Positions 25,965-44,114 of a stretch of 44,728 bases of DNA are shown one piece after another. The stretch comes from Escherichia phage ULINTec6, in the sequence record MZ997840.1. One strand, written 5' to 3'. Made by a program: the position numbers and the translations under genes. Each line of letters starts with the position of its first letter. Positions within the stretch are counted from its first letter, which is position 1. The notes below the pieces were generated by a model that saw only the letters and a list, made by a program, of their open reading frames with translations, did not search any database and had not been told where the DNA came from.

Positions 25965-26702
25965 ATGCCTGTAATTAGACAAACCAGTAAAGTAGGACAT
26001 ATGATGGAAGATGTGGCCTTCCAGATTATTGATAGTAAGCTGGAAGCGGTAAACTTGTGTATGCGAGCTATTGGTCGTGAGGGTGTGGACTCTCTCGACT
26101 CAGGTGACTTGGACGCAGAAGACGCAAGCAAGATGATCGACATCGTATCCCAGAGGTTCCAGTACAACAAAGGAGGTGGCTGGTGGTTCAATCGTGAACC
26201 AAACTGGCAGATTGCACCTGATACCAATGGTGAAGTCAATTTACCTAACAACTGCCTAGCAGTATTGCAGTGTTACGCTTTGGGTGAGAAGAAAGTGCCC
26301 ATGACTATGCGAGCAGGTAAGCTCTACTCTACATGGAGTCATACCTTTGATATGCGTAAGCATGTGAATGCTAACGGTATGATTCGTCTTACCTTACTCA
26401 CCTTACTTCCATATGAGCATCTACCTACTAGTGTAATGCAGGCTATTGCCTATCAAGCTGCTGTAGAGTTTATTGTGTCTAAGGATGCAGATCAGACTAA
26501 GTTAGCCACTGCACAGCAGATTGCCACTCAGCTTCTTATGGATGTGCAATCAGAACAAATGTCACAAAAGCGATTGAATATGCTTGTGCATAATCCTACG
26601 CAGCGTCAGTTCGGTATTATGGCTGGTGGTTCTCAGAATGTACCTGCTTACTCTCATTCACCATATGATAGTTGGACTCTTCGTCCGTGGGAGGATCGGT
26701 AA
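25965..26702 (+). CDS. Tail tubular protein A (T7 gene 11 family)
   Basis: Synteny directly after capsid; AGGAGG RBS then ATG 25965; size near T7 gp11. Confidence 0.75.
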   Translation: MPVIRQTSKVGHMMEDVAFQIIDSKLEAVNLCMRAIGREGVDSLDSGDLDAEDASKMIDIVSQRFQYNKGGGWWFNREPNWQIAPDTNGEVNLPNNCLAVLQCYALGEKKVPMTMRAGKLYSTWSHTFDMRKHVNANGMIRLTLLTLLPYEHLPTSVMQAIAYQAAVEFIVSKDADQTKLATAQQIATQLLMDVQSEQMSQKRLNMLVHNPTQRQFGIMAGGSQNVPAYSHSPYDSWTLRPWEDR

Positions 26703-29104
26703 TGGAAGTACAAGGTTCATTAGGGAGGCAAATCCAAGGGATTAGCCAGCAACCTCCAGCAGTACGTCTTGATGGTCAATGCACGACTATGGTGAACATG
26801 GTTCCCGATGTAGTGAATGGGACTCAATCCCGCATGGGTACAACTCACATTGCTAAGCTCTTGGATGAAGGTACAGATAATATGGCAACGCACCATTATC
26901 GCAGGGGCGAGGGGGATGAAGAGTATTTCTTCACCTTAAAGAAAGGGCAAGTGCCAGAGATATTTGATAAGCATGGACGCAAGTGCAATGTCGTCTCTCA
27001 AGATGCACCTATGACCTACCTTTCTGAAGTTGTCAGCCCTAGGGAAGATGTGCAATTCATGACTATAGCTGATGTTACTTTTATGCTTAACCGTAGGAAA
27101 GTGGTTAAAGCTAGTAATAGGAAGTCACCTAAAGTCGGAGATAAAGCCATTGTGTTTTGTGCATATGGTCAATATGGTACATCTTATTCTATCATAATTG
27201 ATGGAACTACAGCTGCTAGTTTTAAAACACCAGACGGTGGAAGTGCAGAACATGTTGAACAAATCCGAACGGAACGTATCACTTCTGAGTTATATTCCAA
27301 GTTACAGCAATGGAGTGAGGTAGGTGACTATGAAATACAAAGAGATGGTACGAGCATATTTATAGAGAGACGCGATGGTACAAGTTTCACAGTAACAACT
27401 ACCGATGGTGCAAAAGGTAAGGATTTAGTGGCTATCAAGAATAAAGTTAGCTCTACTGACCTACTCCCTTCTCGTGCGCCTGCTGGCTATAAAGTGCAAG
27501 TGTGGCCTACTGGCAGCAAACCTGAGTCTCGTTACTGGCTGCAAGCTGAGCCTAAAGAGGGAAACCTTGTGTCTTGGAAAGAAACAATAGCTGCTGATGT
27601 ATTACTTGGGTTTGATAAAGACACCATGCCTTACATTATTGAACGTACAGGTATTATTGACGGCATAGCTCAATTCACGATAAGACAAGGTGATTGGGAA
27701 GATCGTAAAGTAGGGGATGACTTGACCAACCCTATGCCCTCTTTTATTGATGAGGAAGTGCCCCAGACAATAGGTGGAATGTTCATGGTGCAGAACCGCC
27801 TATGCTTTACAGCAGGTGAAGCGGTTATTGCTTCTCGTACATCATACTTCTTCGATTTCTTTCGTTATACGGTTATCTCTGCATTGGCAACTGATCCATT
27901 TGATATTTTCTCAGATGCGAGTGAAGTCTACCAGCTAAAACATGCAGTAACCTTAGATGGCGCTACCGTGTTGTTCTCTGATAAGTCACAATTCATTTTG
28001 CCAGGAGATAAACCGCTAGAGAAATCCAACGCCCTACTCAAGCCTGTCACAACATTTGAAGTCAACAATAAAGTTAAACCAGTGGCTACTGGTGAGTCTG
28101 TAATGTTTGCTACGAATGACGGTGCTTACTCTGGTGTCCGAGAGTTCTATACAGACTCTTATAGTGACACTAAGAAGGCACAAGCAATCACAAGTCATGT
28201 GAATAAACTTATCGAAGGTAACATTACCAACATGGCAGCAAGTACCAATGTCAACCGATTGCTTGTCACTACAGATAAATATCGTAACATAATTTACTGC
28301 TACGATTGGTTATGGCAAGGCACAGATCGTGTACAATCAGCATGGCATGTATGGGAGTGGCCTATGGGTACAAAGGTGCGAGGTATGTTTTACTCTGGTG
28401 AATTACTTTATCTACTCCTTGAGCGAGGCGGTGGCGTCTATCTGGAGAAGATGGACATGGGGGATGCACTAACCTATGGTTTGAATGACCGCATCCGAAT
28501 GGATAGGCAAGCAGAGTTGATCTTCAAGCATTTTAAAGCAGAAGATGAGTGGGTATCTGAACCACTTCCTTGGACTCCTACTAACCCAGAACTTTTGGAT
28601 TGCATCTTAATAGAAGGGTGGGATTCATATATTGGAGGTTCTTTCCTATTCAAATATAACCCTAGTGATAATACCTTGTCTACAACCTTTGATATGTATG
28701 ATGATAACCTCGTAAAAGCGAAGGTTATTGTTGGGCAGATTTACCCTCAAGAGTTTGAACCTACACCTGTAGTCATCAGAGACAGGCAAGACCGTGTATC
28801 CTATATTGATGTACCTGTTGTGGGATTAGTTCACCTTAATCTTGATATGTATCCTGATTTCTCCGTGGAGGTTAAGAATGTGAAGAGTGGTAAAGTACGC
28901 AAGGTGCTAGCGTCAAACCGTATAGGTGGTGCTCTCAACAATACAGTAGGTTATGTTGAACCAAGAGAGGGTGTCTTCAGATTCCCACTGAGGGCTAAGA
29001 GTACGGATGCTGTTTATCGTATTATTGTAGAATCACCTCACACATTCCAGCTCCGCGATATTGAGTGGGAAGGGAGCTACAATCCAACCAAAAGGAGGGT
29101 CTAA
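26702..29104 (+). CDS. Tail tubular protein B (T7 gene 12 family)
   Basis: N-terminal GISQQPP and C-terminal FRFPL...WEGSYNPTKRRV parallel T7 gp12 (GISQQPD ... YRFPV...WEGNYLRRSSGI). Confidence 0.88.
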   Translation: MEVQGSLGRQIQGISQQPPAVRLDGQCTTMVNMVPDVVNGTQSRMGTTHIAKLLDEGTDNMATHHYRRGEGDEEYFFTLKKGQVPEIFDKHGRKCNVVSQDAPMTYLSEVVSPREDVQFMTIADVTFMLNRRKVVKASNRKSPKVGDKAIVFCAYGQYGTSYSIIIDGTTAASFKTPDGGSAEHVEQIRTERITSELYSKLQQWSEVGDYEIQRDGTSIFIERRDGTSFTVTTTDGAKGKDLVAIKNKVSSTDLLPSRAPAGYKVQVWPTGSKPESRYWLQAEPKEGNLVSWKETIAADVLLGFDKDTMPYIIERTGIIDGIAQFTIRQGDWEDRKVGDDLTNPMPSFIDEEVPQTIGGMFMVQNRLCFTAGEAVIASRTSYFFDFFRYTVISALATDPFDIFSDASEVYQLKHAVTLDGATVLFSDKSQFILPGDKPLEKSNALLKPVTTFEVNNKVKPVATGESVMFATNDGAYSGVREFYTDSYSDTKKAQAITSHVNKLIEGNITNMAASTNVNRLLVTTDKYRNIIYCYDWLWQGTDRVQSAWHVWEWPMGTKVRGMFYSGELLYLLLERGGGVYLEKMDMGDALTYGLNDRIRMDRQAELIFKHFKAEDEWVSEPLPWTPTNPELLDCILIEGWDSYIGGSFLFKYNPSDNTLSTTFDMYDDNLVKAKVIVGQIYPQEFEPTPVVIRDRQDRVSYIDVPVVGLVHLNLDMYPDFSVEVKNVKSGKVRKVLASNRIGGALNNTVGYVEPREGVFRFPLRAKSTDAVYRIIVESPHTFQLRDIEWEGSYNPTKRRV

Positions 29105-29826
29105 TGGCTATAGGTTCAGCCGTTATGTCTGGTATGTCTTCTATTGGTAGTATGTTTGCAGGCAGCGGTGCAGCAGCCGCTGCTGGAGGCACTGCCGCAG
29201 GTGGCGGAGGTTTGCTAGGTTCACTAGGTGGATTCCTAAGTGGTTCCACTGCTGGCTTCTCTAATGCTGGCCTCCTTGGTGCTGGCCTTCAAGGTTTAGG
29301 CTTGATTGGTGATCTCTTTGGTGGAAGTGATGAAGCCAAGGCAATGAAGAAAGCACAAGAAGAGCAATGGCGGCAGCAGCTTATTGCTACACAAGAGGCG
29401 TACAAGACAGTGGCAGACGCAGAGCGTTCTGCTGCTAAACAATATCATGCAGATGCAATAAGCAATCAGGCTTCACTACTACAGCAGCGAGCACAGGTTG
29501 CATTACTAGCAGGTGCTACTGGTACTGGTGGTAACTCTGTATCTTCTATGCTGAATGACTTAGCAGCAGAGGGCGGAAGGAACCAGAGTACAATTATTGA
29601 TAACTATGAGAATCAGAAGATTAACTTCACTAATCAGCTTAAGTCCATCCAGCGAGGTGGGCAAATGCAGATGCGTGAGTTTAAGAAACCTTCTGCTGTG
29701 AGCACCTTGGTTCAAGGTATCCCAAGTCTGGCTTCTGCTTATGTAACTGGTAGCAAGTCGGGTATGGCTTTAGGTAAAGCTCTAACGGATTCTCGTACAT
29801 ATTCATCTGGAACAAGAGGTATTTAA
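29104..29826 (+). CDS. Internal virion protein (Gly/Ala-rich)
   Basis: Position after the tail tubular genes; Gly/Ala-rich N-terminus; AGGAGG RBS then ATG 29104. Confidence 0.65.
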   Translation: MAIGSAVMSGMSSIGSMFAGSGAAAAAGGTAAGGGGLLGSLGGFLSGSTAGFSNAGLLGAGLQGLGLIGDLFGGSDEAKAMKKAQEEQWRQQLIATQEAYKTVADAERSAAKQYHADAISNQASLLQQRAQVALLAGATGTGGNSVSSMLNDLAAEGGRNQSTIIDNYENQKINFTNQLKSIQRGGQMQMREFKKPSAVSTLVQGIPSLASAYVTGSKSGMALGKALTDSRTYSSGTRGI

Positions 29827-32774
29827 TGGCAATTGAGCGACAAGCAGTACAAGGTCTGCCACAAGTGCAGGCCACTTCTCCTAATGTCATGACCTTTGCA
29901 CCTCAGCAAGTTGGAGGTGTGGAGGCTGGCGTAGCTTCTACCTCCGGTAGTCGATTTATCGAAGACCTTATTCGAGCAGCCAGTAGTGTAGCTGATGTAA
30001 CCACTGGTATCCTTAATCAAAAGATTGAGGAAGATAAGGTTGTTCAAATGGAACGGGCATATAATGGACTGATGCCTTCTGAGGATGCAACTCGTGGTGG
30101 CGCTCGTGCTAACATGCTTGTCAAAGCTCAACTGCTAGCTAATGATGAAGCAGCACGAATGAAAGACATGGCTACTCGTTTCCAAGGAACAGATGACGAG
30201 TGGACACAACTCATGGTTGACTCTCGTAATGAGATGCAGAATAAGCTGTTCCAGCAATACCCTGAGTTGCAAGGTGACAAAGATACTATGCGTATGGTCA
30301 CTAATGTCTTCCAAGAACAGCAGCCGCAGATTTGGGCCACACGAACCCAGCATAAACTTGACCGTGAACAAGCAGACCGAGAAGATACATTCGATGGGCG
30401 AGTGGCCTCCACTTGGGATTCTAGTATTGACCCAGAAGCATCGGGATATGCTTTACAGGAACGAATCCGTGAAGGTCTTACCCAAGGTTTGCTTCCAGAA
30501 CAGATGCATAAGAAGCTAGTTGAACGGGCTATCTCTCTTGCACAAGGCGGTGATATCAGCATGGCTGAAGCCTTGAAATATGTTAAGGATGACAAGGGTG
30601 TTTCTGTATATGCAAAGAACCCGCAGCTTATCACAGCTATCACTAATGGTAATGCAGCTTGGGCTAGAAATAATGTAGCTGATGTAACTCGTATGTCTTT
30701 CGAAGTTAAAGAGTCCTACCTTGCAGGTGATTTAACTGATGAAGAATTATTGGAACGAGCACAGCACATTAATAGTCTGACAGGTAACTCTGTGTTCTCT
30801 AATCCAGAACTTGAAGCACTCATGCGTCAAAGAGCTAAACAAAATGCAGAGCTAGGTGCAATGCAGGATATGCGACGTGAACTTTACTCTGACCGCATGA
30901 CTGGCTTCCAAGGTAAGACAGATAAAGAGAAGAAAGCCTACATTGATGTTATCAAACAGGATAGTCAACTCTATGCAGACCAGCAAATTAAGCAACGAGG
31001 TTTGGACCCTTACAGCCAAGAGGCTGAAGCTATCCGTGGTGCAGTAGAAGTGCAGCGCCTGCAATTCATGAACTCCAAAGGCTTAGTGGATGATACTTTT
31101 GAGTCTCGTATCAAAGCCATGGAGTCTATGCTATCACCTGAGCACTTCGCTAAAGGCGAACCACAGGAGTTAATGACTATTCGTCAGTTGTGGGAACAGT
31201 TACCAGAAGAAAGCCGAGGTGTCTTTGGTGATACGGTGAATGGCTATATGGATAACTACAACACTGCATTACAAATGGGAGAGACGCCTTTGCAGGCTGC
31301 AAGGTTTGCCCGTGAAGCACAGCAGAAATTCTCTCGTACTGAGAAAGAAACCAAGAAGTTCAACTCAGCTATTGGAGATGCACTGGATGAGGTATCGGGT
31401 GCTGGCTGGTTTGATGGTAAAACCGAAGTGTCTGACTTAGGTAAATCTATTGCAGAAGAAGAGTTACGAGCTAAGGCCAATATGCTGTGGTCTAGCGGTA
31501 TGCGTAACATGGATTCCATCAAGAAGGCTTTAATTACTTGGGGCAATAAACGCTACACTCAATCAGAGGATGCAAAGACTTCCGGTGGTTATTTCATTAA
31601 AGGTGATTACACTTCTGCATCTGACATGCTTATGTCTGTTGGGAAAGGTGTAAACCCTACCGATGTACCTCTGGCGCTTGGTAGGTATGTAGAAACACAA
31701 ATGCCAGAATTGAAGAAGGAACTTCAAGAGTGGGAAACTAAGGATGATGTATACATTGATTACAATGAACAGAAAGGTACTTTCGTGATTCGTGCTGGTG
31801 CAGCAGGTCGCCCTCTTTCTGGAGTAATCCCTGTCACCTCTTTAGATACCACTTCACTGCTAGACTCTGCCTATCAGAAGAAAGTAGAAGAACGAGATAA
31901 AGGTGAATATGTTCACCCATATCGTACAGATATCGGTGCACAAGAACCCATGCCAGCTAAGCCAACTGCCAAGGATATTGGTAAATTTGGACTAGCTAAT
32001 TTCCTCATGTCTTCTGCCTTTGCTTCTGGTGAGAATCTACCTTCTAACTTCGAGATTAACTATAGAGGCAATATGCAACAATTCTATGACAAGCTAGCTA
32101 TGGCTGAGAATGGCGATAAGCTGGGCTTCAACAAAGCCACAGGAACCTTCACACCGTACAAAGATGCACATGGCGAGTCGGTAGGCTACGGTCACTTCCT
32201 TACGGAAGAAGAAAAGAGAAATGGGTACATTAAGATTGGCGACGAACTGGTTCCGTATCGCGGCTCTATGTCTCAGCTCACTGAGAGTAAGGCCCGTGCT
32301 CTTATGGAACAAGATGCCAAGAAGCATGTACCTCCAACTCGTGATTGGAAAATCCCATTCGACCAGATGCATCCGGCACAGCAGCGCGGTTTAATGGATT
32401 TAACCTATAACTTAGGTAAAGGTGGAATCCAGAATGCACCGCGTGCTCTTGCTGCATTCAAGGCAGGTAAGCTTACAGAAGGCTTTATCGAAATGCTGGG
32501 TACTGCATCCAGTGAAGGTAAGCGTATTCCTGGTTTACTGAAGCGACGCGCTGAGGCTTACAATATGGCATCTGCCGGTGGTGTACCTAAGATTACCGAA
32601 GTAGAGACTCGTGAAGATGGGTCTATGTGGGTTAAGTTCGGTGGACCTATGCCAGCAGGTTCTGTATCTGCATGGACTCATAAACGTATTGGCGCTGATG
32701 GCTGGTATCAGGTTTATGAGGCTGCACCTACCAAGTTAGCTAAAGGCTCTAAGGTAGGTAAAGTTAAGTTGTAG
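29826..32774 (+). CDS. Internal virion (ejection/core) protein with C-terminal lysozyme-like domain
   Basis: 982 aa; C-terminal GESVGYGHFLT and QQRGLMDLTYNLGKGG resemble the T4-lysozyme (GH24) fold signature (TEGYYTIGIGHLLT ... ALINMVFQMGETG). Confidence 0.75.
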   Translation: MAIERQAVQGLPQVQATSPNVMTFAPQQVGGVEAGVASTSGSRFIEDLIRAASSVADVTTGILNQKIEEDKVVQMERAYNGLMPSEDATRGGARANMLVKAQLLANDEAARMKDMATRFQGTDDEWTQLMVDSRNEMQNKLFQQYPELQGDKDTMRMVTNVFQEQQPQIWATRTQHKLDREQADREDTFDGRVASTWDSSIDPEASGYALQERIREGLTQGLLPEQMHKKLVERAISLAQGGDISMAEALKYVKDDKGVSVYAKNPQLITAITNGNAAWARNNVADVTRMSFEVKESYLAGDLTDEELLERAQHINSLTGNSVFSNPELEALMRQRAKQNAELGAMQDMRRELYSDRMTGFQGKTDKEKKAYIDVIKQDSQLYADQQIKQRGLDPYSQEAEAIRGAVEVQRLQFMNSKGLVDDTFESRIKAMESMLSPEHFAKGEPQELMTIRQLWEQLPEESRGVFGDTVNGYMDNYNTALQMGETPLQAARFAREAQQKFSRTEKETKKFNSAIGDALDEVSGAGWFDGKTEVSDLGKSIAEEELRAKANMLWSSGMRNMDSIKKALITWGNKRYTQSEDAKTSGGYFIKGDYTSASDMLMSVGKGVNPTDVPLALGRYVETQMPELKKELQEWETKDDVYIDYNEQKGTFVIRAGAAGRPLSGVIPVTSLDTTSLLDSAYQKKVEERDKGEYVHPYRTDIGAQEPMPAKPTAKDIGKFGLANFLMSSAFASGENLPSNFEINYRGNMQQFYDKLAMAENGDKLGFNKATGTFTPYKDAHGESVGYGHFLTEEEKRNGYIKIGDELVPYRGSMSQLTESKARALMEQDAKKHVPPTRDWKIPFDQMHPAQQRGLMDLTYNLGKGGIQNAPRALAAFKAGKLTEGFIEMLGTASSEGKRIPGLLKRRAEAYNMASAGGVPKITEVETREDGSMWVKFGGPMPAGSVSAWTHKRIGADGWYQVYEAAPTKLAKGSKVGKVKL

Positions 32775-37118: not shown

Positions 37119-37313
37119 ATGATTAACTCCGAACTGGTAGATAGTGGTGTGAAGCTTGCGCCACCTGCATTAGTCTCAGGTGGGTACTTCCTCGGTATCA
37201 GTTGGAATGATTGGGTTCTTATAGCTACATTCATTTATACTGTATTACAAATTGGCGATTGGTTTTATGTAAAATACAAAGCTAGGAGAGATAAGCGTGA
37301 GCGTACACAATAA
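37119..37313 (+). CDS. Putative holin (small membrane protein with charged C-terminus)
   Basis: 64 aa with hydrophobic segments and a highly charged tail (KYKARRDKRERTQ); at the T7 gene 17.5 position. Confidence 0.55.
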   Translation: MINSELVDSGVKLAPPALVSGGYFLGISWNDWVLIATFIYTVLQIGDWFYVKYKARRDKRERTQ

Positions 37314-40242: not shown

Positions 40243-40599
40243 ATGAGGTCGGTGGTGCTTAATAGATACTTCAAGCGACGCGAGTTCGCTTGCCGTTGTG
40301 GATGCGGTACATCCACTGTTGATGCTGAGTTACTACAGGTAATCACAGATGTGCGTGAGCACTTTGGCGCACCTGTAGTTATTACCTCTGGTCATCGCTG
40401 TGCAAAGCACAATGCCAACGTAGGTGGAGCAAAAGGTTCCATGCATCTTACTGGTAAGGCTGCTGACATTAAGGTACAAGGTATTACACCTTACCGTGTA
40501 TGGTCTTACCTAACAGCACGATACCCTAATAGGTATGGTATTGGGTCTTACCCTAACTTCACTCACATTGATGTACGAGATGGGTGTGCACGATGGTAA
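40243..40599 (+). CDS. Peptidase M15-type zinc peptidoglycan hydrolase (putative endolysin)
   Basis: SGHRCAKHN, SMHLTGKAADI and FTHIDVRD motifs typical of M15 D-Ala-D-Ala carboxypeptidase / L-Ala-D-Glu peptidase-like enzymes. Confidence 0.7.
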   Translation: MRSVVLNRYFKRREFACRCGCGTSTVDAELLQVITDVREHFGAPVVITSGHRCAKHNANVGGAKGSMHLTGKAADIKVQGITPYRVWSYLTARYPNRYGIGSYPNFTHIDVRDGCARW

Positions 40600-40857: not shown

Positions 40858-41071
40858 GGTGCTTGAGGTGGTGGCAGGCCTTATTGGCCTGCTGCTTGCC
40901 GCTAAGAATAAGAAGGAAGAGAAGGAGGCACAAAGTGAGGCGAATCATGCTAGCGACAATCCTGCTGATTGGTTCGCTGATCACTTCAGGGTGTCAGACG
41001 GCGTTACCAGAGAATCCAAAGGTAAAGCCCCTGAAGCCGACGCTGACGGCAGTTTACGAGGTGGACGATAA
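40850..41071 (+). CDS. Putative i-spanin (Rz-like)
   Basis: N-terminal TM helix VLEVVAGLIGLLLAA then charged domain; contains the o-spanin start in the +1 frame; exact start uncertain. Confidence 0.5.
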   Translation: MNKVLEVVAGLIGLLLAAKNKKEEKEAQSEANHASDNPADWFADHFRVSDGVTRESKGKAPEADADGSLRGGR

Positions 41072-41144
41072 AGTCTGCTTCAGTAAGCCTGACGCTACAA
41101 AATTAGGTCTGTACATTCTCTCGCTAGAAAGCGGGTATAATTAA
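40947..41144 (+). CDS. Putative o-spanin (Rz1-like outer-membrane lipoprotein)
   Basis: Lipoprotein signal with lipobox LITSGC, proline-rich mature part QTALPENPKVKPLKPTL; starts inside the i-spanin ORF in another frame and extends past it. Confidence 0.6.
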   Translation: MLATILLIGSLITSGCQTALPENPKVKPLKPTLTAVYEVDDKVCFSKPDATKLGLYILSLESGYN

Positions 41145-41678: not shown

Positions 41679-44114
41679 ATGATTCAAAGACTAGGTTCTT
41701 CATTAGTTAAATTCAAGAGTAAAATAGCAGGTGCAATCTGGCGTAACTTGGATGACAAGCTCACAGAGGTTGTGTCGCTTAAAGACTTTGGAGCCAAAGG
41801 CGATGGTAATACAAACGACCAAGATGCAGTAAATGCAGCGATGGCTTCAGGTAAGAGAATTGACGGTGCTGGTGCTACTTACAAAGTATCATCTTTACCT
41901 GATATGGAGCGGTTCTATAATACACGTTTCTTATGGGAACGTTTAGCGGGTCAACCTCTTTACTATGTGAGTAAAGGTTTTATCAATGGTGAACTCTATA
42001 AAATCACGGATAACCCTTATTACAATGCTTGGCCTCAAGACAAGGCGTTTGTATATGATAATGTGATATATGCACCTTACATGGGTAGCGACCGTCACGG
42101 TGTTAGTCGTCTGCATGTATCATGGGTTAAGTCTGGTGACGACGGTCAAACATGGTCTACCCCAGAGTGGTTAACTGATCTGCATCCAGATTACCCTACA
42201 GTGAACTACCATTGTATGAGTATGGGTATATGTCGCAACCGTCTGTTTGCCATGATTGAAACACGTACTTTAGCCAAGAACGCACTAACCAATTGTGCAT
42301 TGTGGGACCGCCCTATGTCTCGTAGTCTGCATCTTACGGGTGGTATCACTAAGGCTGCAAATCAGCGATATGCAACAATACATGTACCAGATCACGGACT
42401 ATTCGTTGGCGATTTTGTTAACTTCTCTAATTCTGCGGTAACAGGTGTATCAGGTGATATGACTGTTGCAACGGTAATAGATAAGGACAACTTCACGGTT
42501 CTTACACCTAACCAGCAGACTTCAGATTTGAATAACGCTGGAAAAAGTTGGCACATGGGTACTTCTTTCCATAAGTCTCCATGGCGTAAGACAGATCTGG
42601 GTCTGATCCCTCGTGTCACAGAGGTGCATAGCTTTGCTACTATTGATAATAATGGCTTTGTTATGGGCTATCATCAAGGTGATGTAGCTCCACGAGAAGT
42701 TGGGCTTTTCTACTTCCCTGATGCTTTCAATAGCCCATCTAATTATGTTCGTCGTCAGATACCATCTGAGTATGAACCAGATGCGTCAGAACCATGCATC
42801 AAGTACTATGACGGTGTATTATACCTTATCACTCGTGGCACTCGTGGTGACAGACTTGGAAGCTCTTTGCATCGTAGTAGAGATATAGGTCAGACTTGGG
42901 AGTCACTAAGATTTCCACATAATGTGCATCATACTACTTTACCGTTTGCTAAGGTAGGAGATGACCTTATTATGTTTGGTTCAGAACGTGCAGAAAACGA
43001 ATGGGAAGCAGGTGCACCAGATGATCGTTACAAGGCATCTTATCCTCGTACCTTCTATGCACGATTGAATGTAAACAAATGGAATGCAGATGATATTGAA
43101 TGGGTTAACATCACAGACCAAATCTATCAGGGTGACATTGTTAACTCCAGTGTAGGGGTAGGTTCTGTTATAGTTAAAGACAGCTACATTTACTATATCT
43201 TTGGTGGTGAAAACCATTTCAACCCAATGACTTATGGTGACAACAAAGATAAAGACCCATTTAAAGGGCACGGACACCCTACTGATATATACTGCTATAA
43301 GATGCAGATTGCAAATGACAATCGTGTATCTCGTAAGTTTACATATGGTGCAACTCCTGGTCAGGCTATACCTACTTTCATGGGTACTGATGGCATCCGA
43401 AATATTCCTGCACCTTTGTATTTCTCAGATGACATTGTTACAGAGGATGCTAAAGTTGGACACTTAACACTTAAAGCAAGCACAAGTGCCAATATACGGT
43501 CTGAAGTGCAGATGGAGGGTGAGTATGGCTTTATTGGCAAGTCTGTTCCAAAGGATAACCAAACAGGTCAACGTTTGATTATTTGTGGTGGCGAAGGTGC
43601 TTCATCTTCTTCAGGTGCACAGATAACTTTGCACGGCTCTAATTCGAGTAATGCTAAGCGTATCACTTATAACGGAAATGAGCACCTATTCCAAGGTGCA
43701 CCAATCATGCCTGCTGTAGATAACCAGTTTGCTGCCGGTGGACCTAGTAACCGATTCACTACCATCTACCTAGGTAGTGACCCTGTTACAACTTCAGATG
43801 CTGACCACAAGTACGGTATCTCTAGTATTAATACCAAGGTGTTAAAGGCTTGGAGTAGGGTTGGTTTTAAACAGTATGGTTTGAATAGTGAAGAAGAGAG
43901 GAACCTTGATAGCATACACTTCGGTGTCTTGGCTCAGGATATTGTAGCTGCTTTTGAAGCTGAAGGATTGGATGCCATTAAGTATGGAATTGTGTCCTTC
44001 GAAGAAGGTAGGTATGGTGTAAGGTATAGTGAAGTTCTAATCCTAGAGGCTGCCTATACTCGCCATCGTCTTGATAAATTAGAGGAGCTGTATGCCACTA
44101 ATAAAATCAGTTAA
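41679..44114 (+). CDS. Tailspike protein with Asp-box (sialidase-like) motifs and C-terminal intramolecular chaperone domain; likely capsule-depolymerising endosialidase
   Basis: 811 aa; Asp boxes SGDDGQTWS and SRDIGQTWES; N-terminal DFGAKGDGNTNDQDAV; C-terminal SDADHKYGISSINTKV...IHFGVLAQDIVAAFEAEG resembles the autocleaving chaperone domain of phage tailspikes/endosialidases. Confidence 0.8.
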   Translation: MIQRLGSSLVKFKSKIAGAIWRNLDDKLTEVVSLKDFGAKGDGNTNDQDAVNAAMASGKRIDGAGATYKVSSLPDMERFYNTRFLWERLAGQPLYYVSKGFINGELYKITDNPYYNAWPQDKAFVYDNVIYAPYMGSDRHGVSRLHVSWVKSGDDGQTWSTPEWLTDLHPDYPTVNYHCMSMGICRNRLFAMIETRTLAKNALTNCALWDRPMSRSLHLTGGITKAANQRYATIHVPDHGLFVGDFVNFSNSAVTGVSGDMTVATVIDKDNFTVLTPNQQTSDLNNAGKSWHMGTSFHKSPWRKTDLGLIPRVTEVHSFATIDNNGFVMGYHQGDVAPREVGLFYFPDAFNSPSNYVRRQIPSEYEPDASEPCIKYYDGVLYLITRGTRGDRLGSSLHRSRDIGQTWESLRFPHNVHHTTLPFAKVGDDLIMFGSERAENEWEAGAPDDRYKASYPRTFYARLNVNKWNADDIEWVNITDQIYQGDIVNSSVGVGSVIVKDSYIYYIFGGENHFNPMTYGDNKDKDPFKGHGHPTDIYCYKMQIANDNRVSRKFTYGATPGQAIPTFMGTDGIRNIPAPLYFSDDIVTEDAKVGHLTLKASTSANIRSEVQMEGEYGFIGKSVPKDNQTGQRLIICGGEGASSSSGAQITLHGSNSSNAKRITYNGNEHLFQGAPIMPAVDNQFAAGGPSNRFTTIYLGSDPVTTSDADHKYGISSINTKVLKAWSRVGFKQYGLNSEEERNLDSIHFGVLAQDIVAAFEAEGLDAIKYGIVSFEEGRYGVRYSEVLILEAAYTRHRLDKLEELYATNKIS

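Follow-up and report, generated by a model that had tools for sequence, protein, structure and literature searches.

A GH24 lysozyme domain on the gp15-like ejection protein of Escherichia phage ULINTec6

We found that a 982-amino acid (aa) internal virion protein of Escherichia phage ULINTec6 (MZ997840.1) carries a GH24/T4-lysozyme-type domain. Very probably, this is a gp15-type ejection protein bearing a GH24 muramidase that opens the peptidoglycan at DNA entry. The window, by which we mean the whole 44,728-nucleotide stretch of DNA that was analysed, is the genome of a Vectrevirus, a K1-5/K1E-like podophage. A lysozyme domain on a gp15-like ejected protein is real but ordinary and already published, because reviews list the 98%-identical K1-5 protein and that of SP6 as virion-associated lysozymes. 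Our own additions are small: E761 as the likely catalytic residue, the alignment of D780 and S785, an insertion of ~10 residues, and a conserved but unmatched C-terminal tail (Table 1).

A sequence-only reading of this DNA had described a plus-strand open reading frame (ORF) of 982 aa with two blocks reminiscent of T4 lysozyme. The ORF is present exactly at the positions given, and the blocks were located as GESVGYGHFLT (residues 783-793, nt 32172-32204) and QQRGLMDLTYNLGKGG (residues 852-867, nt 32379-32426); by Pfam, phmmer, profile and hhalign comparisons, their likeness to T4 lysozyme is not due to chance. The protein is an ortholog of K1-5 gp35 (YP_654136.1), K1E gp35 and SP6 gp36, and PHROG 4290, "lysozyme domain-containing protein", matched it over its full length; NCBIfam returned no model for it. 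At the nucleotide level, the gene is 96.9% identical to that of Escherichia phage ULINTec7. Querying a large protein collection with the full-length protein yielded 29 homologs; the C-terminal 252 residues alone retrieved only 4 fragments from the same collection. Minus-strand ORFs of 66-171 aa within the gene were dropped, as the coding region that contains them is conserved over its full length and nothing supports them.

Table 1 Features of the lysozyme-bearing gene and of related genes in the window
Feature	Coordinates	Strand	Support
gp15-like internal virion (ejection) protein gene with lysozyme domain	29826..32774	+	single ORF, ATG start, 982 aa
N-terminal, nearly all alpha-helical region (residues ~1-735), T7 gp15-like fold	29826..32030	+	AF2, Foldseek
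GH24/T4-lysozyme-like muramidase domain (residues ~746-915)	32061..32570	+	Pfam, AF2 model, Foldseek
Codon of E761, proposed catalytic general acid (T4 lysozyme E11 counterpart)	32106..32108	+	invariance, helix position in model
D780 (nt 32163-32165) and S785 (nt 32178-32180)	32163..32180	+	HMMER and hhalign alignments to T4 lysozyme
Conserved ~65-residue beta-rich C-terminal tail (916-982) and stop codon	32571..32774	+	model, homolog alignment
Nozzle gene	26672..29104		PF25675
Upstream gp14-like internal virion protein	29065..29826	+	Pfam PF24072 T7_gp14 E=1.4e-32; PHROG 805
Downstream gp16-like internal virion protein, 1102 aa	32839..36147	+	PHROG 342 E=4e-244
Holin	37119..37313		Pfam PF10746 E=4.8e-25
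Candidate endolysin, Peptidase_M15_3, 118 aa	40243..40599	+	Pfam PF08291 E=1.6e-31
Rz-like spanin ORF	40863..41144		PHROG 8971

The lysozyme domain and its putative active site

An HMM comparison of the C-terminal region with lysozyme families, proposed in the sequence-only reading, gave a significant match. Pfam PF00959 (Phage_lysozyme, GH24) aligned with residues 776-910 (nt 32151-32555) over profile positions 9-124 of 125, with E=1.6e-9 and a score of 38.6 bits, above the gathering cutoff of 22.3 bits. The same family was above threshold in the orthologs SP6 gp36 and Era103 gp41. Searching the PDB with phmmer retrieved T4 lysozyme at E=7e-4, and a 13-sequence profile (HMM) reached it at E ~1e-6; this profile matched 519 distinct PDB sequences at E<=0.01, and among the 60 matches listed, nearly all were T4 lysozyme entries. 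Aligning the domain with T4 lysozyme by hhalign gave E=5e-6.

The AF2 model of the 248 C-terminal residues had a mean pLDDT of 84, with block means of ~63-93 in the lysozyme region. Its top Foldseek matches in the PDB were DLP12 endolysin, R21, EC340, T4 lysozyme and P22 lysozyme (prob ~1, TMt 0.55-0.63), and in the full-length model the lysozyme region matched the GH24 muramidase 8b2s_A. Every Foldseek match to this region was either a GH24-type enzyme or a construct with fused T4 lysozyme (prob ~1, TMt 0.5-0.64), although their E-values were modest (1e-3 to 0.3). The predicted domain thus has the T4-lysozyme fold, whose two lobes are an N-terminal one of a helix and a beta-sheet and a helical C-terminal one. 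It had been placed in the C-terminal ~170 residues; the domain is indeed present, but it spans residues ~746-915 and is followed by a separate tail.

Within the domain, E761 and N762 were invariant in all 30 homologs, with identities down to 38%. In the AF2 model, the domain's first helix (H746-762) has E761 at its C-terminal end, the place that E11 occupies in the first helix of T4 lysozyme. The phmmer, 13-sequence HMM and hhalign alignments did not reach E11 but began at T4 lysozyme residue 15-17, and a MAFFT alignment put the gap in the wrong place, because relative to T4 lysozyme there is an insertion of ~10 residues (residues ~763-774, a beta-hairpin in the model) right after the putative catalytic Glu. 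The assignment of E761 is therefore based on its invariance and its helix position in the model, which suggest that it is the likely catalytic acid, equivalent to E11. Inside the motif YKDxxGxxxxGxGH, D780 aligned with T4 lysozyme D20 and S785 with T26, the two residues that position the attacking water in that enzyme. D780 was kept in 28 of the 30 homologs, and position 785 was S in 24, T in 3 and N in 3.

The gp15-like carrier and its neighbours

The full-length AF2 model had an overall pLDDT of 75, with low confidence for residues 1-91. For the ~700 N-terminal residues, the top Foldseek matches were the T7 gp15/core protein chains 9jyy_G (E=6.2e-7), 7k5c_A (1.5e-6), 6yt5_A (1.2e-5) and 7eyb_A, with prob 1.00 and 680-730 aligned columns. 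Global TM-scores against T7 gp15 structures were low (0.21-0.29), as one would expect of a flexible helical protein that switches conformation. The relationship to gp15 gave no match at the sequence level, and Pfam found no family even for T7 gp15.

The genes are ordered nozzle, gp14-like, lysozyme-bearing gp15-like and gp16-like. The T7 gp15 fold, together with the position between the gp14-like and gp16-like genes, identifies the carrier as an internal virion protein, in agreement with the sequence-only reading. The stop codon of the gp14-like gene shares one base with the ATG of the lysozyme-bearing gene, forming the junction TAATG. At its other end, the gp14-like ORF was assigned a GTG start at 29065 by the tool; 240-aa orthologs suggest an ATG at 29104, and the K1-5 ortholog is 723 nt long.

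The match of the gp16-like protein to PHROG 342 covered profile positions 162-1227 only, and its BLASTP match to T7 gp16 was confined to the C-terminal part (E=1e-7). In Pfam searches at E<=1, the SLT domain (PF01464) was absent from the 1102-aa protein and from its first 254 residues; in T7 gp16, our positive control, it was detected at residues 15-127 with E=1.7e-31. These results, with the PF00959 match on the gp15-like protein, uphold the earlier proposal that the lysozyme is fused to the core protein in place of an N-terminal transglycosylase of the T7 gp16 kind.

Comparison with known virion-associated lysozymes

The closest described proteins are Escherichia phage K1-5 gp35 (YP_654136.1, locus tag EPKV1_gp38) and K1E gp35, which share the length of 982 aa, 98% aa identity, the gene order and the Pfam domain; the K1-5 protein is annotated as "lysozyme domain-containing protein". 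Only ~2% of residues differ, and no functional difference is detectable. Salmonella phage SP6 gp36 (AAP48775.1 / NP_853596.1; 978 aa) is homologous over its whole length and has PF00959 at residues 770-905 (E=6.6e-10), but its identity is 43% overall and ~65% over the C-terminal 252 residues. The gp16 homolog of SP6 is longer (1270 aa vs 1102 aa here) and likewise has no SLT match. In the table of a 2017 review (PMC5380687), K1-5 YP_654136.1 and SP6 gp36, an internal head protein, appear among the virion-associated lysozymes, with Moak & Molineux 2004 as the source. According to a 2022 review, K1E/K1-5 gp35 is homologous to gp15 and bears the lysozyme activity found on gp16 in T7 (PMC8954989). 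Packaging in the virion core and ejection into the periplasm are stated in the reviews for SP6 gp36 and K1E/K1-5 gp35 (PMC5380687, PMC8954989).

A similar layout occurs in Pseudomonas phage phiKMV gp36, with its C-terminal lysozyme gp36C, and in gp42 of the phiKMV-like phage Ar-KM; both are internal virion proteins at the gp15 position with a C-terminal T4-lysozyme-like domain. According to a cryo-EM study, the domain of Ar-KM gp42 (residues 740-881) faces outward on a predicted tunnel (bioRxiv 10.64898/2026.05.18.726046), and the muralytic activity of phiKMV gp36C was shown biochemically, as cited in a review (PMC5380687). The motif YKDAxGxSVGxGH lies at residues 760-774 of phiKMV gp36 and at 778-792 here, and BLASTP detected no similarity between the two proteins beyond these 15 residues. 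As phiKMV gp36 also had no Pfam match at E<=0.1, a direct family link to gp36C was not demonstrable by sequence. The two proteins differ in that the putative catalytic Glu of phiKMV gp36 precedes the Tyr by 7 residues, as in T4 lysozyme, compared with 17 here, and phiKMV gp36 has no additional tail at its C-terminus.

In Pectobacterium phage ΦM1, the ejectosome includes an outer ejection protein (OEP) whose lysozyme-like domain (G718-S903), resolved by cryo-EM, is correspondingly placed, although it is of another subfamily (PMC11440229). The gp16-equivalent of ΦM1 bears a second endolysin-like domain, whereas Pfam detected none in the gp16-like protein here. The N-terminal lytic transglycosylase of T7 gp16 (SLT, PF01464) is likewise an ejected muralytic domain that opens peptidoglycan for DNA entry (PMC8954989). 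It differs in enzyme family (SLT/GH23-type vs GH24), in carrier (gp16 vs a gp15 homolog) and in the end of the carrier at which it lies (N- vs C-terminal). T7 mutants in this transglycosylase are delayed at low temperature or on stationary-phase cells. T4 lysozyme (gene e) and the lysozyme domain that T4 gp5 carries in the virion and uses at entry share the fold and the D20/T26-region motif; the Ar-KM preprint also draws the comparison with T4 gp5. Identity to T4 lysozyme is, however, ~16-20%, the insertion after the putative catalytic Glu sets the domain apart, and the T4 lysozymes are free or on a myovirus tail spike, whereas here the carrier is a podovirus ejection protein.

The case is an example of how modular podovirus ejection proteins are known to be: a peptidoglycan-opening enzyme, of differing families, is carried by a gp15-type or a gp16-type protein. 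Reviews and recent cryo-EM studies have already made this point (PMC8954989, PMC11440229, bioRxiv 10.64898/2026.05.18.726046), and the importance here lies mainly in correct annotation. The labels "endolysin" and "baseplate hub" on several GenBank records are misleading.

Proposed role of the domain and the C-terminal tail

We propose that the gene product is the middle of three ejection (internal core) proteins. By analogy with T7, its gp15-type part would be stored in the capsid core atop the portal, would leave through the tail once the gp14-like outer-membrane protein has passed, and would then refold into a tube spanning the periplasm. Carried along with this tunnel protein, the GH24 domain would locally cut the glycan strands of peptidoglycan, which would allow the tunnel and the gp16-like protein to reach the inner membrane and DNA to enter. 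The cell-wall-opening role of the T7 gp16 N-terminal lytic transglycosylase would thereby be kept, through another enzyme family on another ejection protein. Muralytic activity in virions is cited from reviews for the K1-5 and SP6 orthologs and is predicted for the ULINTec6 protein.

The insertion in the loop that follows the presumed catalytic Glu, and the lack of an alignment directly tying E761 to E11, might suggest that the domain is catalytically inactive and purely structural, serving as a peptidoglycan-binding tunnel anchor or giving the core its shape for DNA spooling. We regard this as very improbable. The conservation of E761, D780 and S/T/N at position 785 is what a functional GH24 site should show, the gp16 homolog offers no muralytic domain in its place, and the SP6 and K1-5 orthologs are tabulated in a review as virion-associated lysozymes, citing Moak & Molineux 2004 (PMC5380687). 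A structural role in the core would also be compatible with catalysis and is thus no true alternative. Scarcely credible, too, is that the domain acts chiefly late in infection, as an endolysin or its helper, instead of at entry. PHROGs places the family under "lysis", some GenBank records say "putative endolysin", and a genomics paper points out that the endolysin role of the M15 peptidase of SP6, K1E and K1-5 is a suggestion that lacks biochemical evidence (PMC4837284). Against this, the orthologs are listed as virion-associated enzymes (PMC5380687), and within the internal-virion-protein operon the domain forms one polypeptide with a gp15-like structural part of 735 residues. The window also contains separate genes for a holin, an M15 peptidase and a spanin, and lysis from within thus does not require the GH24 domain; the M15 peptidase is likely the true endolysin of the phage. 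With a separate lysis cassette present and the domain fused to a structural protein, we rejected an endolysin assignment for it.

Lysozyme-fold enzymes include transglycosylases such as lambda R, and sequence alone does not fix whether the chemistry is that of a hydrolase or of a lytic transglycosylase. The domain might accordingly yield 1,6-anhydro-MurNAc, as T7 gp16 and lambda R do, although we consider this improbable. The best-matching family is PF00959/GH24, and the positions aligned with the water-positioning D20 and T26 of T4 lysozyme are kept as D and S/T/N. A preprint loosely uses "transglycosylase domain" for the analogous phiKMV-type domain (bioRxiv 10.64898/2026.05.18.726046), whereas the SP6 and K1-5 orthologs are called "lysozyme" in a review (PMC5380687).

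Pfam found no family for the tail, its sole match in PHROGs was its own family, PHROG 4290, and a fold search of the PDB and a viral structure library returned nothing beyond an Erwinia phage ortholog, no PDB match covering the tail. That the insertion and the tail together make up a regulatory or targeting module not described before seems doubtful; such a module might silence the enzyme while it is in the capsid, attach to peptidoglycan or, once the tunnel has assembled, hold the domain against the gp16-like protein. In the AF2 model, the tail comprises strands at residues 923-928, 934-938, 960-964 and 978-981 (pLDDT ~83-92), and D931, G932, S933, M934, F938, I955, G959, W960, V963, L971 and G978 were invariant among the homologs. 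The insertion and the tail are the features that separate this subfamily from T4 lysozyme and phiKMV gp36C.

The lysozyme domain and its gp15-like carrier

The gene for the 982-amino acid internal virion protein is one unbroken ORF of 982 codons starting with ATG. This ATG and the stop codon of the preceding gene have one base in common (TAATG), an overlap usual in tightly packed operons. The N-terminal ~735 residues were modelled as nearly all helical, and the best four Foldseek matches of the full-length model were T7 gp15 or T7 core protein chains (9jyy_G, 6.2e-7; 7k5c_A, 1.5e-6; 6yt5_A, 1.2e-5; 7eyb_A, 9.5e-4; probability 1.00 and 680-730 columns each). This predicted helical fold, together with the agreeing gene order, indicates that the protein is the equivalent of gp15, the ejectosome component that forms the periplasmic tunnel, consistent with its assignment as an internal virion protein in the sequence-only reading.

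The likeness of its C-terminal region to lysozyme is real. Both blocks on which that reading had relied were located, GESVGYGHFLT at residues 783-793 and QQRGLMDLTYNLGKGG at residues 852-867. The HMM search against lysozyme families that it had proposed matched residues 776-910 to Pfam PF00959 (Phage_lysozyme, GH24/T4-lysozyme family; E=1.6e-9), with 38.6 bits against a curated cutoff of 22.3 bits and profile positions 9-124 of 125 covered. Against PDB sequences, phmmer found T4 lysozyme at E=7e-4, and a profile of 13 family members found it at about 1e-6; with a cutoff of E<=0.01, this profile retrieved 519 different PDB sequences, the best 60 of which were almost all T4 lysozyme entries. Comparison with T4 lysozyme by hhalign gave E=5e-6. 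The AlphaFold model of residues 735-982 (mean pLDDT 84) matched DLP12 endolysin, phage 21 R21, EC340, T4 lysozyme and P22 lysozyme in Foldseek (probability ~1.0, target-normalised TM 0.55-0.63), and the fungal GH24 muramidase 8b2s was among the matches of the full-length model. The domain itself was thus recovered, but not strictly in the last ~170 residues, where it had been placed, because in the model it spans about residues 746-915.

All Molineuxvirinae homologs that were compared carry, behind the domain, a further ~65 residues that are conserved and modelled with confidence as a separate, beta-rich tail. Pfam gave no family for this tail and the PDB no similar fold, and it has no aligned counterpart in phiKMV gp36.

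Features in and around the gp15-like gene and other loci of the window
Feature	Coordinates	Strand	Match or remark
Nozzle protein	26672..29104		Pfam PF25675
gp14-like protein (T7_gp14 family)	29065..29826		PF24072, E=1.4e-32
gp15-like lysozyme-bearing gene	29826..32774	+	Between gp14-like and gp16-like genes
Insertion	32109..32150		Residues ~762-775
C-terminal tail	32571..32771		Residues 916-982
gp16-like protein, 1102 aa			Downstream of the 982-aa gene; PHROG 342, E=4e-244
T7-type holin	37119..37313		
ORF, 114 aa	39589..39933		PHROG 2725, N-terminal ~100 positions
ORF, 95 aa	39946..40233		PHROG 2725, N-terminal ~100 positions
Peptidase_M15_3 protein	40243..40599		E=1.6e-31
Rz-like spanin ORF	40863..41144		
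Small ORF, 131 aa	41216..41611		PHROG 15083
Tailspike	41679..44114		End_beta_propel, E=9e-223; S74 chaperone domain

The gp14-like ORF was called mechanically from a GTG (253 amino acids), running into the end of the nozzle gene; its K1-5 and K1E orthologs have 240 amino acids, so the true start is likely the ATG at 29104.

Putative catalytic residues and alternative readings

In all alignments (phmmer, hhalign and the 13-member profile), D780 pairs with D20 of T4 lysozyme and S785 with T26. Across 30 homologs, with identity down to 38%, D780 is kept in 28, and position 785 is S in 24, T in three and N in three. No alignment to T4 lysozyme extends to E11, all stopping at T4 residue 15-17, because ~10 inserted residues, which the model folds into a small beta-hairpin at residues ~763-774, separate the first helix from the YKD strand: from Glu to Tyr there are 7 residues in T4 lysozyme and phiKMV gp36, whereas this family has 17. 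The E761-N762 pair is invariant (30/30 sequences) and closes the modelled helix 746-762, a place which we take to be equivalent to that of E11, at the end of the first helix. We propose E761 as the putative catalytic acid because of this invariance and helix-end position.

A catalytically dead, purely structural domain is the less likely reading of a region in which E761 is invariant and D780 so widely kept, and lytic-transglycosylase instead of hydrolase chemistry is also less likely for this GH24-matching domain. Action mainly as an endolysin is less likely too: the window has its own holin, Peptidase_M15_3 and Rz-like spanin genes, so the domain is not required in that role, and that it is fused to a structural protein speaks for a function during entry.

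The sequence-only reading had contrasted this arrangement with the N-terminal transglycosylase of T7 gp16. The gp16-like protein matched the C-terminal part of T7 gp16 by BLASTP (E=1e-7), and its PHROG 342 match starts at profile position 162, thus skipping the T7 transglycosylase region. Pfam searches found no SLT in this protein even at E<=1, nor in its first 254 residues scanned alone, whereas T7 gp16, the positive control, gave SLT at E=1.7e-31 (residues 15-127). Judged from these profiles, the T7-type transglycosylase is absent, and both the observation and the interpretation of that reading are correct.

Relatives, prior reports and proposed mechanism

Among 64 matching phage records, nearly all Escherichia phages of the genus Vectrevirus (K1-5/K1E group), 61 showed 92-97% nucleotide identity to the gene, the best being ULINTec7 (96.9%). 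The protein shares 98% identity with K1-5 YP_654136.1, which carries the annotation "lysozyme domain-containing protein", and its match to the identically named PHROG 4290 covers its full length. Homologs are found across the Molineuxvirinae: SP6 has one, as do phages of Proteus, Klebsiella, Pectobacterium and Erwinia. GenBank records of related phages label the counterparts variously as 'putative endolysin', 'baseplate hub', 'baseplate hub subunit / lysozyme', 'internal virion protein B' or 'hypothetical protein'; for an ejection protein of a podovirus, the names that refer to a baseplate hub or an endolysin are misleading.

A lysozyme on the gp15-like protein is nothing new: near-identical phages have one that experiments have characterised in part. 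A review of virion-associated enzymes, crediting Moak & Molineux 2004, lists SP6 Gp36 as an internal head protein and lysozyme and K1-5 Gp38 (YP_654136.1) as a 109 kDa lysozyme, and cites biochemical characterisation of the analogous phiKMV gp36 lysozyme (PMC5380687). A review of ejection proteins assigns to the gp15-like gp35 of K1E and K1-5 the lysozyme activity that T7 carries on gp16 (PMC8954989). A genomics paper credits Dobbins 2004 and Scholl 2004 with noting that the C-terminus of SP6 gp36 resembles lysozyme (PMC4837284). Hardies et al. described internal virion proteins as variable hosts of tail lysozyme domains (PMC4819975). Cryo-EM revealed the same layout in ΦM1 (PMC11440229) and in the phiKMV-like phage Ar-KM (bioRxiv 10.64898/2026.05.18.726046). 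For the insertion after the putative catalytic Glu and the conserved tail, small additions only, we found no description in the literature consulted.

By analogy with T7 and phiKMV-like structures, and with everything between packaging and tube assembly inferred from homologs, several copies of the gp15-like protein would sit stacked in the core, above the portal. Upon adsorption, the gp14-like protein would exit first and make an outer-membrane pore; the gp15-like protein would follow, refolding into a periplasmic tube whose outward-facing GH24 domains, at cell-wall height, could locally hydrolyse MurNAc-GlcNAc bonds. The gp16-like protein would then finish the channel to the cytoplasm.

Other loci in the window

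The tailspike is a K1-type endosialidase, and the 131-amino acid ORF lies just upstream of it; according to a review, the place of K1-5's K5 lyase is taken in K1E by a second tailspike that is small and probably truncated (PMC5380687). The two adjacent ORFs matching PHROG 2725, labelled acetyl-CoA acetyltransferase, look like one short gene duplicated in tandem.
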